NCBI GenBank assembly: GCA_016187485.1
Contig: JACPJO010000004.1
Span: 121,349-185,348 of the forward strand
Origin: Candidatus Uhrbacteria bacterium
GTDB taxonomy: Bacteria > Patescibacteriota > Patescibacteriia > UBA9934 > UBA10169
DNA length: 64,000 nucleotides
Direction: 5' to 3'
The translations under genes and the position numbers were made by a program. Below, piece after piece: positions 5,616 to 50,817 of the stretch; within the stretch, counting starts at the first letter, position 1; every line of letters begins with the position of its first letter. Below the pieces are notes generated by a model. It was not told the origin of the DNA and did not search any database. It was given only the letters and a program-made list of their open reading frames with translations.

Positions 5616-5630
5616 TTTTGTTACATGTCT

Positions 5631-5741
5631 CTTAGTGATCACTTAGAGAGAAAGATCAGGCGAGAGGACTTTTTGTTCTTACTTTAGAGATATTTTCAGT
5701 CAACCCCACTTATCCTCACTTAGTGATCACTTAGAGAGAAA
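5631..5741. repeat. Two direct copies of a 24-bp element, CTTAGTGATCACTTAGAGAGAAAG (5631-5654 and 5718-5741), each containing the perfect 10-bp palindrome AGTGATCACT
   Basis: Read directly. The copies are identical, lie about 63 bp apart in the intergenic region upstream of the 5862 ORF, and a further CTTAGAGAG follows at about 5755. Confidence 0.65.
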
Positions 5742-5861
5742 GCGGGCATGATGACTTAGAGAGCAAATGAGAGGCTTCGTCGCTTGCAAAAATCAAAATT
5801 TCCTGCTAGGTTCCCCTTATTCCAAGCCGGTGCTTGGATGGAGGACCTTGCCATGTCTGTG

Positions 5862-18183: not shown

Positions 18184-19074
18184 CTAGACGGGGCGAGCGG
18201 CCATATTGGCGTGCCGTTGACGTTGGTAGCAACTGGAGCAGATGGCCTTGCCGGTCTCGTTGCGAACCTGCACCGGTTTGACCTCACCACACGTGAAACA
18301 CTTCTCGTGCGTGGAGGGGTCTCGATAACGAGCTTTGTGATAGCAGTTCAGACAGATGGCTTCGCCGGTCTCGTTGCGAACCTCCACTCGTTTGACCTCG
18401 CCACACATGAAACACTTCTCGTGCCTGGAGGGGTCTTTGCGATAGCAGCTCGGACAGACGGCCCTGCCGATCTCGTTGCGAACCTCCACTCGTTTGACCT
18501 CGCCACACGCGAAACACTTCTCGTGCCTGGAAGGGTCTTTGCGATAGCAGTTCGGACAGATGGCTTCGCCGGTCTCGTTGCGAACCTGCACTCGTTTGAC
18601 CTCGTCACACACGAAACACTTCTCGTGCGTGGAGGGGTCTCGATAACGAGCCGTCTGATTGCAGTTCGGACAGATGGCTCCGCCGGTCTCGTTGCGCGCA
18701 GCCACCGGTTTGACCTCTCCACATTCCGAGCACTTCTCGTGAGTAGAAGGGTCGTGGTAGCGAGCCCTCTGATAGCAGTTCAGACAGATGGCCTCGCCGG
18801 TCTCGTTGTGCATTGTCAGCGGTTTGACCTCGCCACACGTGAAACACTCCCCGCACCTGGAAGGGTCTTTGCGATAGCAGTTCGAACAGGTGGCTTTGCC
18901 GGTCTCGTTGCGCGCAGCTATCGGTTTGACCTCGCCACACATGAAACACTTCTCGTGAGTAGAAGGATCGTGGTAGCGAGCCCACTGATAGCAGTTCAGA
19001 CAGATGGCTTTGCCGATCTTACGGTTTTTACGGACAGTCCTGTGCCGTCCGCAGGTATCACAAACACCTTTCAC
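18184..19074 (-). CDS. Tandem zinc-ribbon repeat protein: eight consecutive C-x2-C-x16-C-x2-C modules (296 aa)
   Basis: GTG start with a strong AAGGAGG RBS 7 nt upstream. Repeat unit HEKCFxCGEVKxVxxRNETGxAICxNCY(QxARYxDPST/RKDPSR) x8. The opposite-strand ORF 18058..19134 is its shadow. Confidence 0.75.
   Translation of the reverse strand: MKGVCDTCGRHRTVRKNRKIGKAICLNCYQWARYHDPSTHEKCFMCGEVKPIAARNETGKATCSNCYRKDPSRCGECFTCGEVKPLTMHNETGEAICLNCYQRARYHDPSTHEKCSECGEVKPVAARNETGGAICPNCNQTARYRDPSTHEKCFVCDEVKRVQVRNETGEAICPNCYRKDPSRHEKCFACGEVKRVEVRNEIGRAVCPSCYRKDPSRHEKCFMCGEVKRVEVRNETGEAICLNCYHKARYRDPSTHEKCFTCGEVKPVQVRNETGKAICSSCYQRQRHANMAARPV
18200..19060. repeat. Coding tandem DNA repeat, unit about 99-114 bp x8
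   Basis: Recurring ...CGTTTGACCTCGCCACACATGAAACACTTCTCGTG... blocks at about 18393, 18492, 18591 and onward. Confidence 0.7.
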
Positions 19075-33261: not shown

Positions 33262-33291
33262 CTCTCTTAGTGATCTCTAAGAGAGAATCTT
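33262..33291. promoter_or_regulatory. Perfect 12-bp inverted repeat ATTCTCTCTTAG-tgatct-CTAAGAGAGAAT in the divergent intergenic region between the T-fold gene and rpsA
   Basis: Read directly. It contains the TTAGTGATC core seen at 5631/5718, 48552 and 49118. Confidence 0.45.
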
Positions 33292-33413: not shown

Positions 33414-34544
33414 ATGACCGATCAAATCCCTCTCTCCCCTTTTGGCGCTCTTCTCGCCGAGAACGAGGCCTATTTGCTTTTCCCAAAGCTGGGTGACATC
33501 GTGAAAGGTAAGGTCGTCTCTGCCAACCGCCGCGAGGTGCGCCTCGACTTGAGTGGTGTCGCCGTGGGTGTCGTACGCGGCCGCGAACTTTTTGCCGAAT
33601 CCGAAGAATACGCGTCGCTTGAGCCAGGCAACGAAATCGAAGCAACGGTAATTGGTCTTGAAAACGAAAACGGCGAGATCGAACTCTCCTTCCGATTCAC
33701 GGGTGCCCAAAAGGCATGGGAAGGACTGCGTGATGGCCAGACCAAGAGCGAGATTGTGAAAGCGAAGATCCTCGACGCCAACAAAGGCGGCCTTATTGTG
33801 CAGGTGGGCCATGTCACAGGCTTCCTTCCCGTCTCGCAACTCTCCCCCGACCACTACCCACGCGTATCGGGCGGCGACAAGCAGAAAATCTTGGAGAAGT
33901 TGAAAACATACGTCGGGGAATCTTTCGACGTGCGCCTTCTGGATGTGAATGAACAAGATGAAAAACTCATCGTCTCGGAAAAGGCTGTGTGGGAAGAGAA
34001 GCGTAAAAGCGAAATCTCTCAGTATAAAGTTGGCAATACCGTGGACGGAGACGTTACCGCGCTTGCGGACTTCGGCGCGTTTGTAAAATTCGACGCGCTG
34101 GAAGGATTGGTGCACATCAGTGAAATCGCCTGGCAGCGCATTGACCACCCCAAAGATGTCCTCAAGGTCGGCGACCATGTACGCGCCGAGATCATCGGTA
34201 TAGAGGGATCAAAGATCTTCCTCTCCATGAAGAAACTTATGGAAGATCCGTGGCGTAATGTGGAGAAGAGGTACAAAGTGGGCGACGTGGTAAAGGGCAA
34301 AGTGTTAAAAGTAAATCCCTTCGGCTTCTTTGTAGAACTGGACCAAGACATCCACGGCTTGGCGCACGTAAGTGAGCTTTCGGAAAAGCCCGTGGAAGAT
34401 CTTCACACCATTGCCAATGAGGGCGACACGATTGATTTCAAAGTGGTGTCCATTGAACCAAAAGAGCACCGCCTGGGCTTGAGCCTCAAGGCAATGAAGG
34501 AACCCACGGCTCCTGTCAAAGAAGATGTGCCGCAAGCGGCATAA
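33414..34544 (+). CDS. rpsA: 30S ribosomal protein S1 (four S1 domains)
   Basis: Repeated S1 motifs (GDIVKGKVV..., GQTKSEIVKAKI..., GNTVDGDVTALADFGAFV..., GDVVKGKVLKVNPFGFFV...). Confidence 0.9.
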   Translation: MTDQIPLSPFGALLAENEAYLLFPKLGDIVKGKVVSANRREVRLDLSGVAVGVVRGRELFAESEEYASLEPGNEIEATVIGLENENGEIELSFRFTGAQKAWEGLRDGQTKSEIVKAKILDANKGGLIVQVGHVTGFLPVSQLSPDHYPRVSGGDKQKILEKLKTYVGESFDVRLLDVNEQDEKLIVSEKAVWEEKRKSEISQYKVGNTVDGDVTALADFGAFVKFDALEGLVHISEIAWQRIDHPKDVLKVGDHVRAEIIGIEGSKIFLSMKKLMEDPWRNVEKRYKVGDVVKGKVLKVNPFGFFVELDQDIHGLAHVSELSEKPVEDLHTIANEGDTIDFKVVSIEPKEHRLGLSLKAMKEPTAPVKEDVPQAA

Positions 34545-47931: not shown

Positions 47932-48285
47932 TTAGGTTGGGGGAACCCAGATGCCGGTACGGAGGTACTGGTAGCCCTTGACGTAGGCATGAGCCCGCAT
48001 CATCCACAGGTGGGCATACTTGAAGAGGGCACTCGAGAAAAAAACGGTGGCCCAGTAGTACGTGAACGGCTCGTCGGTAAGCTCCACGCCGTAGAAGATG
48101 GCCGTCGTCCCGTAGTAGGAGTCGTGCCCGAATTGTCCGATCCCGATGTGGCTTCCCGTGAAGAGGTCCACGAGCGGGAGAGCGAAGGCGAACCACGCCA
48201 ACATGACGAAGATGCTCGCGCCGAAGACGAGCCACCACCAGCGTGATCCGCTGGTACGGTTCACGGCCTTTTGAAGAACGTCCAA
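47932..48285 (-). CDS. Hypothetical aromatic-rich membrane protein (117 aa)
   Basis: Two hydrophobic helices (WWWLVFGASIFVMLAWFAFALPLV; YYWATVFFSSALF). The overlapping plus ORF 47803..48246 is a charged, low-complexity shadow. Confidence 0.4.
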   Translation of the reverse strand: MDVLQKAVNRTSGSRWWWLVFGASIFVMLAWFAFALPLVDLFTGSHIGIGQFGHDSYYGTTAIFYGVELTDEPFTYYWATVFFSSALFKYAHLWMMRAHAYVKGYQYLRTGIWVPPT

Positions 48286-48551
48286 GCTTCCTCCTCGCGG
48301 TTTTACCGCTGTGTGAGTTTCTCGCCGAAGTGGCGAGAAGTACTCCTAAAATAACAAAAAGTGAGCATTTTGTCAATGCTTCGCGTGCTTTTGTGGGCAT
48401 TTCAACTAACGAGAACTCATATCAAAAACACTCTTTGGTCGTTTCGGATCAAACGACATCTGAAACGCCTTCAAAGCTATTTTTGATATGAGCTCTAACT
48501 AGCTCTTGCGTCTACGCTCAATTGCTTCCCTGCTCCGAAATCCGTTCATGA

Positions 48552-48584
48552 CCCGACTAGTGATCCGGCCGGATCACTAGTCGG
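48552..48584. promoter_or_regulatory. Perfect 32-bp palindrome CCGACTAGTGATCCGG|CCGGATCACTAGTCGG at the 3' end of the wHTH-Cas2-like gene
   Basis: Read directly. It overlaps the gene's stop codon. Confidence 0.6.
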
Positions 48585-49107
48585 ATTGCTTAGCAATGTA
48601 AACCCGGATCCAATCTCCCGCTCCTGCCATCTTAATGAGCTGTGAAAGTGGTTTGGCAATATCAAAATTCGACGCCCAAACACTCTGTTGTATAGGAATA
48701 AAACCTATGGAGGACAAAAATCTTCGCCATTGAAGTCGCAAAGGCCGTAAACTTTCTGGAATATCAAACACGACGAGGCAATCGGTATCCTCGGGTAAAG
48801 TGGCTGCGAAATGCAGCTGGAGGCGGACGTACTCAAAAAGGCCTTTCTGTGTCAGTGCTGCCTCAAAAATTCCAGCTTTTTCTCGCAGCTTCAAAAGCTT
48901 TTGCTTTTTCAGTTGGTGCAACGCGTTGATTTTTTGTCTTTTTGCCAGATCGAGACGCATTCTCTCAAGATCAAACTGATAATACCAAAGAGCTTTTCTC
49001 CCTCGATACGTCTGTATATGCTCAAGTGTCATATACAAATTTCCAAACGCTTCAAGAAGTTTTGAAACGCTTGAATTTTGACGGAGAGGTCTTTCAAAAC
49101 TTTTCAT
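48577..49107 (-). CDS. wHTH + Cas2/VapD-like domain fusion protein (176 aa)
   Basis: N-terminal helix-rich wHTH-like region (..SKLLEAFGNLYMTLEHIQTYRGRKALWYYQFDL..). The C-terminal LVVFDIPESLRPLRLQWRRFLSSIGFIPIQQSVWAS...DWIRVYIA follows the Cas2 beta1-alpha1-beta2...beta4 pattern (VVYDI..R+..L...G.RVQ.SVF...DSVRIY). The architecture is like PaaX-type regulators. Inference from motif inspection only. Confidence 0.55.
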   Translation of the reverse strand: MKSFERPLRQNSSVSKLLEAFGNLYMTLEHIQTYRGRKALWYYQFDLERMRLDLAKRQKINALHQLKKQKLLKLREKAGIFEAALTQKGLFEYVRLQLHFAATLPEDTDCLVVFDIPESLRPLRLQWRRFLSSIGFIPIQQSVWASNFDIAKPLSQLIKMAGAGDWIRVYIAKQSD

Positions 49108-49117
49108 AGCGGTTTGA

Positions 49118-49143
49118 TTAGTGATCCGGCTGGATCACTAGAG
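49118..49143. promoter_or_regulatory. Near-perfect palindrome TAGTGATCCggctGGATCACTA 11 nt upstream of the wHTH-Cas2-like start
   Basis: Read directly. The 9-bp arms are identical to those of the palindrome at 48552. Confidence 0.6.
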
Positions 49144-49236
49144 ATCCAAAAATTTTCGAGCGCCGCCAGATCTCTGACATCTTTATCGTAATGGTGGGTG
49201 GGGACACCAACAGAGCGGGCGCTTTTGACAGCCTCT

Positions 49237-49863
49237 TCAGATTCCTGCACTTTCGAGAGACTTTTTTATTTCCTCAAATATCAACAAGTGGCCTTTAGCA
49301 TTGGGATGCAGGCCATCATCCGTTAGATCGCGCAGATCGCTCCGCGCTTCTAGCACAGAAAATATTTCGATAAACGGCACGTGCTCCGCCTGACAAACCT
49401 CTTTGGCAATACGTTCGTACATTTTTATGCGCTCATTGAGAAAGAAGATATAACCCTTCCACGGATTACAAACATCCTCCACAACAGGGCTATCGCCAAC
49501 CCATAAAACATGCCCCGTAAGTTCTTTCGCTAGGGTAAGGATTCTCAAGACATTCTCACGGTACTCATCCTCTGGAACCTTTGAGACATCGTCCTCTACC
49601 CGTGCGTCATTTCCCCCAAGACTAATGAACATCGTCCACTCTTTCTTTGGTTTTCCGCGGAGACGCACACGTGTTTCTGACTCCATCCGTCCGAGAACAT
49701 CACGCGTTGTATCTCCCGAAATAGCAAGGTTGTGAAAATGGCAACGCTTCTCTTTTGTATCGAGCCACTGGCGCAAACGTCCAGCCCAGCCGCCGTGCTC
49801 ATAATCAGTCTGCCCAAAAGCCGTGCTCATGCCAAATAAAAGATAGCGCATACCGTCACCCAA
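49237..49863 (-). CDS. SGNH/GDSL-family hydrolase
   Basis: Block III/V motifs ...FISLGGNDA... and C-terminal ...DDGLHPNAKGH... (DxxH). Confidence 0.75.
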   Translation of the reverse strand: MGDGMRYLLFGMSTAFGQTDYEHGGWAGRLRQWLDTKEKRCHFHNLAISGDTTRDVLGRMESETRVRLRGKPKKEWTMFISLGGNDARVEDDVSKVPEDEYRENVLRILTLAKELTGHVLWVGDSPVVEDVCNPWKGYIFFLNERIKMYERIAKEVCQAEHVPFIEIFSVLEARSDLRDLTDDGLHPNAKGHLLIFEEIKKSLESAGI

Positions 49864-50437
49864 GAATCAATTTCTTCAATTCGGCCATTTTGTTCGCATC
49901 CAATTTGGCCTCCAAGAGTTTTACTCGTAACTCCTTCTCTTCAAAGTTTGGGTCCACAGCTCTCTGTACAAACTCATCGAAGGTCACAAAATCGAGATCG
50001 ATCTTTTCTCCACCGTCGAGATCTTGTTCTGTAACCTTGCGACACCCCCGAGCAATGAAAATATAAACCGCCCACTCGATTTTGCTTACAGGTTGGTGTG
50101 CATCAAGCAGAATCCAATCGGCTGCTTCATATCCAGATTCTTCAAGCAGCTCACGCTTGGCGGCTTCTATCGGACTTTCCCCTTCATCAACTCTTCCGCC
50201 AAAAGTGCCGACAAACACATCTTGACCAGGCTGCTGTTGCCGGCAGAGGATAATCTTGCCATCTTCCGTCACAGGGACGACAAGCACGGTATCTGGTCTA
50301 CGAAGCTTTTCAAACATCGTCCGAGAGCCATCAAACAACTCCTGTTCCCATTGATAAACATCAAAAATGACGCCCTTGAAAACCCTGGTGGCATTTTCAG
50401 GAATCGGTTGCTTCGATTGCGGTTTTGCGATATGCAT
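49856..50437 (-). CDS. NUDIX hydrolase (ADP-ribose pyrophosphatase-like)
   Basis: Nudix box GGRVDEGESPIEAAKRELLEESG. Confidence 0.8.
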   Translation of the reverse strand: MHIAKPQSKQPIPENATRVFKGVIFDVYQWEQELFDGSRTMFEKLRRPDTVLVVPVTEDGKIILCRQQQPGQDVFVGTFGGRVDEGESPIEAAKRELLEESGYEAADWILLDAHQPVSKIEWAVYIFIARGCRKVTEQDLDGGEKIDLDFVTFDEFVQRAVDPNFEEKELRVKLLEAKLDANKMAELKKLILG

Positions 50438-50552
50438 AGGTACCCAACGTCATTCCCGCGTAGAGTATCACACTCCCAGTAAACGCCTAAAACACAAAAA
50501 GGGGTCAGGTCTTGAATTTTGAATTTTAAAAAGTCGACGTTATCTGGATATA

Positions 50553-50585
50553 CAAAAAGCCACCAGCAATGCTGGCGGCCTTTTT
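50553..50585. terminator. Bidirectional rho-independent terminator (AAAAA-GCCACCAGCaatGCTGGCGGC-CTTTTT)
   Basis: 9-bp stem flanked by an A-run and a T-run. It lies immediately 3' of tRNA-Glu on the minus strand. Confidence 0.5.
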
Positions 50586-50659
50586 GGTGACCCCACCGGG
50601 AATCGAACCCGGATTACAGGCTTGAAAAGCCCGTGTCCTAACCATTAGACGATGGGGCC
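50585..50659 (-). tRNA. tRNA-Glu (anticodon TTC)
   Basis: GGCCCCATCGTCTAATGGTTAGGACACGGGCTTTTCAAGCCTGTAATCCGGGTTCGATTCCCGGTGGGGTCACCA. Glu-type D-loop, anticodon loop TTTTCAA. Confidence 0.85.
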
Positions 50660-50817
50660 GTTAATATGGCGCGAAGAATCTATCATATTAGTATGGGCAA
50701 ATCAAGACAAAATCAGCAAATTCAAAATTCAAGACCTGACCCCAATTCGATTCCATTTAAATAAGTACTCATCGGGTGTATATACATCATGGGTAAATTA
50801 AGCCCTCCAGCAACGGT

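Follow-up and report, generated by a model that had tools for sequence, protein, structure and literature searches.

The locus described here raises the question of what a stand-alone gene for a protein with a winged-helix half and a Cas2-like half is doing between two long palindromes. The gene, designated gene X, lies in a 64,000-nucleotide stretch of contig JACPJO010000004.1 from a Candidatus Uhrbacteria bacterium (this whole 64-kb stretch is called the window below), with one palindrome just upstream of its start codon and the other at its stop codon (Table 1). We found that this palindrome-gene-palindrome bracketing recurs across a large family of homologs, which is new here; no published account of the family or of its architecture was found, although the coverage of the literature was incomplete and an earlier description is possible. 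The reading that we favor, and which we hold at about an even chance, sees the locus as an accessory module complete in itself: a minimal dimer of PaaX type would bind the two sites around its own gene and repress or insulate it.

The bracketing was observed in 34 of 39 homologous loci of candidate-phyla-radiation bacteria (numbered here with the prefix L), each with the gene between two similar dyad-symmetric sites. In 24 of the 32 scored loci, the sequence shared by the two flanks surpassed that of every spacing-matched control drawn from that locus (up to 60 controls). The first homolog examined carries a 26-nt repeat, unrelated in sequence to that of the window, just before its ATG and just after its stop codon, and the same arrangement was found in a 59%-identical homolog (P0004) and in three distant members of Daviesbacteria, Parcubacteria, and Berkelbacteria type. 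Family sites are 20 to 48 nt long; the upstream site lies 10 to 49 nt before the start codon, and the downstream site falls on the stop codon or directly behind it, beside codirectional and convergent next genes alike. The fit between sites and reading frame is close. Indeed, in 12 loci of different clades the distance from the dyad to the start codon is exactly 11 nt, with the outer TG of the site being the TG of the ATG, and the end of the open reading frame (ORF) often falls inside the downstream site; in L012, the same repeat gives ATG at one end and TGA at the other. Besides, the two copies are identical over 26 to 37 nt, including asymmetric positions, in L002, L008, L012, L028, and L050. 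Some family loci have their two copies in direct and others in inverted orientation (151 versus 147 informative positions), by which a simple target-site duplication is rejected as their sole origin. Separately, we observed two cognate palindromes side by side on one flank, 47 to 175 nt apart, in four loci (Table 1); those of L017 are in inverted orientation, giving a larger hairpin.

In the window, TAGTGATCCGGCYGGATCACTA occurs only at positions 48558 to 48579 and 49119 to 49140, with no other copy at three or fewer mismatches and an expected count of 0 in 100 shuffles, and its half-site CTAGTGATCCGG has no extra copies above chance. The preliminary description of this DNA had spoken of two perfect palindromes; the downstream one is indeed perfect and extends to 32 nt, but the upstream one has one central mismatch. 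The dyad of the upstream site lies 22 nt before the A of the ATG, with 11 nt between the end of the site and the ATG, and the stop codon TAG (48579 to 48577, minus strand) is inside the gene-proximal arm of the downstream site.

The sequence of the sites follows a common plan, which we characterized using 69 sites aligned on their dyads. Symmetric arm positions amounted to 82%, compared with 53.6% in shuffled sites and 32 to 40% when the partner column was slid; the covariation score was 0.643 versus 0.18, and changes on both sides were found in 14 of 16 rings. G.U-type cells were not enriched (29 of 227 non-Watson-Crick cells), which implies that the symmetry is that of duplex-DNA half-sites rather than of an RNA stem. 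A core, CG-NN-CG, is conserved, being CGATCG in most loci, CGGCCG in the window, L016, L019, L031, and L050, and CGTACG in L003 and L009. Outside the core, CA/TG is preferred at positions ±13 to 14 and rings 8 to 11 are A/T rich, and rings 5 to 7, beside the core, are the least symmetric and constrained. Such a base-specific pattern, going beyond complementarity, would be expected of a bipartite protein site, unlike a hairpin, and the evidence favors specific protein-DNA recognition. An about 3-fold enrichment of CGATCG in related loci relative to base composition was gone under a Markov expectation (184 observed versus 173 expected), and therefore a link to highly iterated palindromes was dropped.

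The arms, on the other hand, belong to the individual locus: half-site identity is 75% within a locus versus 35% between loci, paralogs of one genome have different arms, and arm divergence follows protein divergence (r = 0.3, p < 0.001). The exact palindrome of the window is not kept in relatives; what is kept is the architecture and the CG-NN-CG core.

The sites are also linked to the gene. About 350 kb of related loci contained only three extra site copies (Table 1). Among 34 family loci, drawn from species-representative genomes, the upstream neighbor is UvrA in four and the downstream neighbor is UvrC in five, the gene often lying between uvrA and uvrC; in two loci, it lies between recJ and rnhA, and the other contexts are varied. 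Four uvrB-uvrA-uvrC clusters of Uhrbacteria lack the gene; there, uvrA overlaps or abuts uvrC, or other small genes lie between the two, and no palindromes were found at the gene-less uvrA-uvrC junctions of the three 10-kb Uhrbacteria loci for which DNA was available. Because these junctions lack the palindromes, the sites arrive and leave with the gene, and the module comes and goes as a unit. No sign of recent transposition was seen in the loci examined. The arrangement uvrB-P-uvrA-P-X-P-uvrC in L014 (P, palindrome) had prompted us to consider a LexA-like regulator of uvr genes; this was rejected, since related genomes have abutting uvrA and uvrC without a site and most family members are in other contexts. 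As a separate observation, uvrB-uvrA-uvrC junctions of Uhrbacteria (L047, L048, L049, and the P0267 locus) act as hot spots at which small accessory genes are found. Their cargo is a 94-aa GIY-YIG protein, a cupredoxin, a major facilitator superfamily (MFS) fragment, a 171-aa protein that appears pentapeptide-repeat-like by eye, or the palindrome-bracketed gene, and other genomes show a 4-nt overlap between uvrA and uvrC.

The preliminary description had assigned to the 176-aa protein a two-part layout of PaaX type, with an N-terminal winged helix and a C-terminal Cas2-like domain, and this is supported, for the Cas2-like half by profile and structure comparisons and for the winged helix by the structural model. 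Residues 110 to 173 match PF20803 (PaaX_M, "PaaX protein central Cas2-like domain") with an E value of 7.5e-12 and 45.6 bits (cutoff, 24), whereas the Cas2 model TIGR01573 gave 21.6 bits, just under its cutoff of 24.5. An AlphaFold2 model built on 34 homologs (mean pLDDT, 86.6) has a C-terminal half of b-a-b-b-a-b topology over residues 108 to 173 (strands 108 to 114, 137 to 140, 143 to 146, and 167 to 173; helices 118 to 133 and 151 to 160), and an N-terminal half with a helix, a beta-hairpin wing, and a helix over residues 56 to 99, residues 30 to 50 being of low confidence. Foldseek against the PDB ranked Escherichia coli PaaX (8a39) first with a probability of 1.00; Streptococcus pyogenes Cas2 (5zyf, type II-A) likewise had a probability of 1.00, with an rmsd of 3.2 Å over 68 columns, and further matches were PaaX-like Rv0674 and 3l09 and winged-helix proteins such as F-93. 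The family profile matched PDB Cas2 chains at E values of 0.012 to 0.08. The N-terminal PaaX Pfam model had no match at an E value of ≤10; the structural model of this half matches winged-helix proteins and the whole PaaX chain. The hhalign alignment to PaaX spans PaaX residues 57 to 172 only, no match to PaaX_C was found with Pfam, and the protein stops at residue 176, directly after the Cas2-like domain. The gene X protein is related to PaaX, though truncated, and in structure to Cas2, and it lacks defining traits of both.

In the 34-sequence family alignment, the invariant columns are C110, V112, F114, D115, P117, E118, R124, R128, Q140, S142, and V143, among which neither an HUH motif (His-x-His) nor an invariant Tyr is present. 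D115, at the end of strand 1, aligns with the Asp of the Cas2 FDMP motif but with Ser in E. coli PaaX.

The family is large. A profile search of 1.84 billion cluster representatives (50% identity) returned 3005 clusters at an E value of ≤0.001 and 620 at ≤1e-10, and the best 150 of the 3005 clusters were all 105 to 239 aa long. PF20803 was present in all 120 homologs listed by an indexed search; those listed with a source name were Patescibacteria (Uhrbacteria, Daviesbacteria, Parcubacteria, and Berkelbacteria), and their public labels were "Cas2," "PaaX," or hypothetical. Several genomes carry 2 to 4 divergent paralogs each. Public de Bruijn-graph contigs (k = 31) of several samples stop in or at family palindromes (the end of L001, the ends of L053 to L057, and the starts of L037 to L039); five such contigs from five samples end inside the downstream site, 22 nt past the stop codon of the window gene, and three contigs begin at the palindrome upstream of P0004. 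Because perfect palindromes of at least 31 nt break de Bruijn-graph assemblies, palindrome-gene modules can be expected often to lie at contig ends and to be under-sampled.

On the favored reading, the winged helix would provide base recognition and the Cas2-like domain would serve dimerization, the effector domain of PaaX being absent. The dimer would bind double-stranded DNA at both long dyad-symmetric sites around its own gene, its winged helices reading the outer arms about 8 to 14 bp from the dyad and its Cas2-like dimer lying over the conserved CG-NN-CG core. Occupation of the upstream site, adjacent to the start codon or containing it, would repress the expression of the gene itself, and the occupied downstream site at the stop codon might be a second anchor, either for a loop around the gene or as a roadblock insulating the inserted gene from its neighbors. 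The module as a whole is accessory and was found between housekeeping genes that elsewhere abut. PaaX is an autoregulated repressor whose inverted half-sites, TGATTC-N27-GAATCA, are 27 bp apart (PMC9493321), and with this spacing the family sites of 24 to 48 bp fit the PaaX geometry. The repeated unit of L050 includes TTGACA-16 nt-TAGTAT, and the core falls within the spacer, which is the classical position of an operator. A sigma-70 promoter at a consistent distance from the dyad was sought across loci and not found, only that of L050 being convincing. A lack of Shine-Dalgarno sequences was also considered as a special trait and is not distinctive (3 of 37 family genes versus 19 of 149 crude controls).

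Several features go beyond plain autoregulation and weigh against this reading, keeping a cassette or a nuclease under consideration. The identity of the two copies over 26 to 37 nt goes further than protein contacts would require and has the look of a recent duplication or of gene conversion. The perfect palindromes reach 46 to 48 nt, the ORF is packed exactly between the sites, and a second site at the 3' end is not needed by a simple autoregulator. The upstream gene is only 27 to 40 nt away in some loci, and no convincing sigma-70-type promoter was found upstream of the window gene. Furthermore, the Asp of the Cas2 active site, kept in the family and replaced by Ser in E. coli PaaX, hints at an activity beyond dimerization.

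These features lead to the first alternative, a mobile or selfish cassette, which we regard as possible but rather unlikely. The palindrome-gene-palindrome unit would be a minimal mobile element whose protein recognizes the palindromic ends by its winged helix, and a putatively competent Cas2-like domain would nick or cleave at or near the CG-NN-CG core or recruit host recombination; the two copies would then have arisen when the unit inserted into a cognate site or recombined with one, and the solo copies in L014, L022, and L028 would be excision scars. The exact filling of the inter-site space, with the start codon fixed 11 nt from one dyad and the stop codon inside the other site, is in keeping with such an element, as are the repeat of L012 that supplies both codons, the near-identical copies of several loci, the presence of several paralogs per genome, and an invariant catalytic Asp, unlike PaaX. 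The presence and absence of the unit at conserved junctions, where uvrA and uvrC abut or overlap without gene and palindromes, points in the same direction; besides, the family members that share a uvrA|uvrC junction have an identity of only 30 to 34% and lie scattered over the family tree, which suggests independent insertions. The GC content of the gene is also below that of its locus in 34 of 39 loci (mean, -7 points; p = 6e-10). Against active mobility, no identical or near-identical paralogs were seen within a genome, and each examined 90%-identity cluster has a single genomic context. The window gene is fixed: all eight samples (8/8) with the neighboring hydrolase also hold it at the same position, so that no strain-level presence and absence was seen among them. 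The mixed orientation of the copies is not explained by a simple target-site duplication, no recombinase, transposase, HUH motif, or invariant Tyr was found, a scan of viral contigs revealed no family member, and Cas2 alone is not known to have strand-transfer activity. The more specific proposal, that candidate-phyla-radiation bacteria have here a minimal selfish or mobile cassette of a new kind, whose stand-alone winged-helix-Cas2 protein, with an intact active-site Asp, recognizes and acts on its own bounding palindromic repeats, seems to us unlikely. If true, it would be a Cas1-independent partnership of a Cas2 homolog with palindromic repeats, with a possible bearing on the union of Cas2 and repeats in the evolution of CRISPR.

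Palindromes beside a gene may also act in the transcript, as a 3' terminator or stabilizer and as a 5' read-through terminator or start-codon-hiding structure, the protein leaving them untouched or binding RNA via its Cas2-like RNase-type domain. The downstream site folds as RNA at -28.9 kcal/mol (z = -6.1), A- and T-tracts stand on either side of the palindromes in L008, L011, L018, L028, L030, and L034, like those of bidirectional terminators, other long perfect terminator-like palindromes are present in these genomes (L015, 7055 to 7088), and the start codon is part of an arm in the 11-nt class. We nevertheless consider an RNA-level role improbable, because G.U-type pairs are not enriched, specific bases are conserved rather than complementarity alone, and the rings beside the would-be loop are the least symmetric. 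The window sites have no U-tract, and no credible family match was found in Rfam. Such a role also leaves unexplained why arms are shared within a locus yet differ between paralogs and why the two copies occur only with this gene.

A toxin-antitoxin-like module had been proposed in the preliminary description as well. In a single-chain version, the Cas2/VapD-type domain would be a toxic RNase, and the fused winged helix would autoregulate it at the palindromes; Cas2 belongs to the VapD interferase family (PMC6452270), the catalytic Asp is kept, and modules of this type are typically autoregulated, with which a palindrome close to the start codon agrees. Beyond the fold, this proposal gained no support: no partner gene was present at any locus, evidence from PADLOC or toxin-antitoxin families, which was not specifically looked for, did not turn up, PaaX, the closest characterized relative, uses the domain for dimerization, and the 3' site would be unexplained, so that we consider it highly improbable. 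That the palindromes are generic genome-wide repeats (REP-like elements or ordinary terminators) beside the gene by chance is scarcely credible, a few extra copies near some family members notwithstanding, since only two copies exist in 64 kb, both at the gene, pairs with locus-specific arms occur in 34 of 39 homologous loci, palindromes are absent from the three Uhrbacteria loci without the gene, and the exact window palindrome gave seven matches in metagenome contigs, all unrelated single sites with no family gene nearby and uninformative about dispersal in the source genome itself; the earlier view that the sites are tied to the gene is thereby upheld. Neither of the refuting outcomes named in the preliminary description, a C-terminal half dissimilar to Cas2/VapD or palindromes spread independently of the gene family, was seen in the sequences covered.

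The ATG start of gene X is backed by alignment with a 39%-identical homolog, over the Met26 start of one public gene call. The gene had been described as standing outside any CRISPR-Cas locus, which agrees with our results: no CRISPR array was found in the window, and none of ten neighboring proteins was a Cas protein in a Pfam scan of the region from about 44.4 to 52.3 kb, to which the search for cas genes was confined. Pfam cas families were likewise not found among the immediate neighbors of the 34 family loci. The neighbors of gene X with Pfam matches are a GDSL hydrolase, two NUDIX proteins, a CAP-domain protein, a glycosyltransferase, and a TrmB-type regulator, the remaining scanned ones being without a match; no paa catabolic genes were among them. 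There is no conserved small partner ORF next to gene X, whose flanks consist of the palindromes and unrelated genes. The GC content of gene X is 0.427, compared with 0.557 for the window locus. It is part of a low-GC stretch at about 48200 to 50800 (0.42 to 0.50, versus 0.56 for the window and 0.60 to 0.67 just outside), which spans gene X, the GDSL hydrolase, and one NUDIX gene and may be a small acquired island.

Three further repeats were observed in the window. An imperfect 26-nt inverted repeat (49042 to 49067 and 49092 to 49117; 77% complementary, 24 nt between arms) has one arm over the start codon of gene X and the preceding 10 nt and the other over codons 14 to 22, and could hide the start codon in the mRNA. 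A second and apparently unrelated palindrome family, CTCTTAGTGATC(A/T)CTAAGAG, occurs at 5629 to 5648, 5717 to 5736, and 33264 to 33283 (three copies versus 0 expected), all in apparently intergenic spacers: two copies, 88 nt apart, are upstream of an ORF starting near 5854, and the third precedes a gene whose start is near 33416. The half-site of this family, CTTAGTGA, is similar to the CTAGTGA half-site of the gene-bracketing palindromes, with the halves 10 bp closer, and the palindrome is probably the operator of another regulator. Finally, a tandem array at 18250 to 19019, with about 6 copies of 102- to 114-nt units at 68 to 76% identity, is the only multicopy repeat in the window and is not a CRISPR array.

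Table 1. Positions of gene X, its protein domains, its palindromic sites, and additional site copies in related loci
Feature	Location	Position	Strand	Description
Gene X, short PaaX-like protein	Window	48577..49107	Minus	ORF of 176 aa, ATG start
Upstream site	Window	49119..49140		22-nt palindrome TAGTGATCCGGCTGGATCACTA, one central mismatch (CCGGCTGG)
Downstream site	Window	48553..48584		Perfect 32-nt palindrome CCGACTAGTGATCCGGCCGGATCACTAGTCGG
Predicted N-terminal winged helix	176-aa protein	About residues 13-99		
C-terminal Cas2-like ferredoxin-fold domain	176-aa protein	About residues 108-173		Motifs CLVVFDIPE, R124/R128, GF, QQSVW
Side-by-side palindromes	L007	5492-5568		
Side-by-side palindromes	L017	5422-5510		
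Side-by-side palindromes	L024	5350-5427		
Side-by-side palindromes	L028	4578-4784		
Extra copy	L014	uvrB-uvrA spacer		
Extra copy	L022			Arms of paralog L024, same genome
Extra copy	L028			Second site upstream of gene

Thousands of small proteins of candidate-phyla-radiation bacteria that are labeled "CRISPR-associated endonuclease Cas2" or "PaaX" are neither; they form a coherent family with a fixed and unusual genomic signature, in that two copies of a long palindrome particular to the gene enclose each member. Should the protein do no more than bind the sites, the family would be a library of orthogonal repressor-operator pairs with predictable sites from unculturable organisms and a clean system for the coevolution of a DNA-binding protein and its site. 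Should the conserved Cas2 active site act on the palindromes, this would be the first Cas2 homolog with its own sequence-specific DNA target and a testable link of Cas2-fold proteins to palindromic repeats outside CRISPR. On either reading, the Cas2 annotation of these genes needs correcting.

Among known systems, the closest is PaaX of E. coli (PDB 8a39; Pfam PaaX, PaaX_M, and PaaX_C), the best structural match, which has a winged helix followed by a Cas2-like PaaX_M domain, the layout predicted for the gene X protein. PaaX recognizes long inverted repeats, repressing the promoter of its own gene (PMC9493321); in the window, a palindrome ends 11 nt before the ATG. However, PaaX has 316 aa as opposed to 176 aa; the gene X protein is without the C-terminal effector (phenylacetyl-CoA) domain, has no paa genes nearby, and keeps the Cas2 catalytic Asp and the FDIPE motif, both of which PaaX lacks. 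Furthermore, its sites are fully palindromic and bracket the gene, whereas those of PaaX are only in promoters. With Cas2 (TIGR01573/PF09827; PDB 5zyf and 5xvn), the protein has in common the b-a-b-b-a-b fold, the strand-1 Asp, the R..R of helix 1, GF, and Q.SV(W/F), but it is fused to a predicted winged helix, scores under the Cas2 model cutoff, and has no array in the window and no cas gene among its scanned neighbors. A gene between two palindromic repeats resembles repeat-spacer-repeat in form only, the "spacer" being the gene itself.

REPtrons (RAYT with REP palindromes) and IS200/IS605 elements likewise consist of one small gene of ferredoxin-like fold tightly bracketed by lineage-specific palindromes, with several divergent copies per genome. 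The gene X family differs from both by having neither an HUH motif nor a catalytic Tyr, and its predicted winged helix suggests recognition of duplex rather than single-stranded DNA; unlike REP sequences, its palindromes are not dispersed in tens to hundreds in the 64-kb window or in the ~350 kb of related loci. Integron attC cassettes and Xer-dependent pdif modules are also compact single-gene units with imperfect palindromes (arm, 6- to 8-bp center, arm) between unrelated genes, but here the cargo is always the same gene family, the sites covary with the gene, and no association with an integrase or Xer was seen. Lastly, looping repressors (DeoR, GalR, and LacI O1-O2) likewise use two cognate operators hundreds of base pairs apart (540 to 620 bp here), one of them at the start of the regulated gene. 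In contrast to these, the loop of gene X would enclose exactly the regulator's own gene, and the second operator would be at the stop codon in nearly all members.

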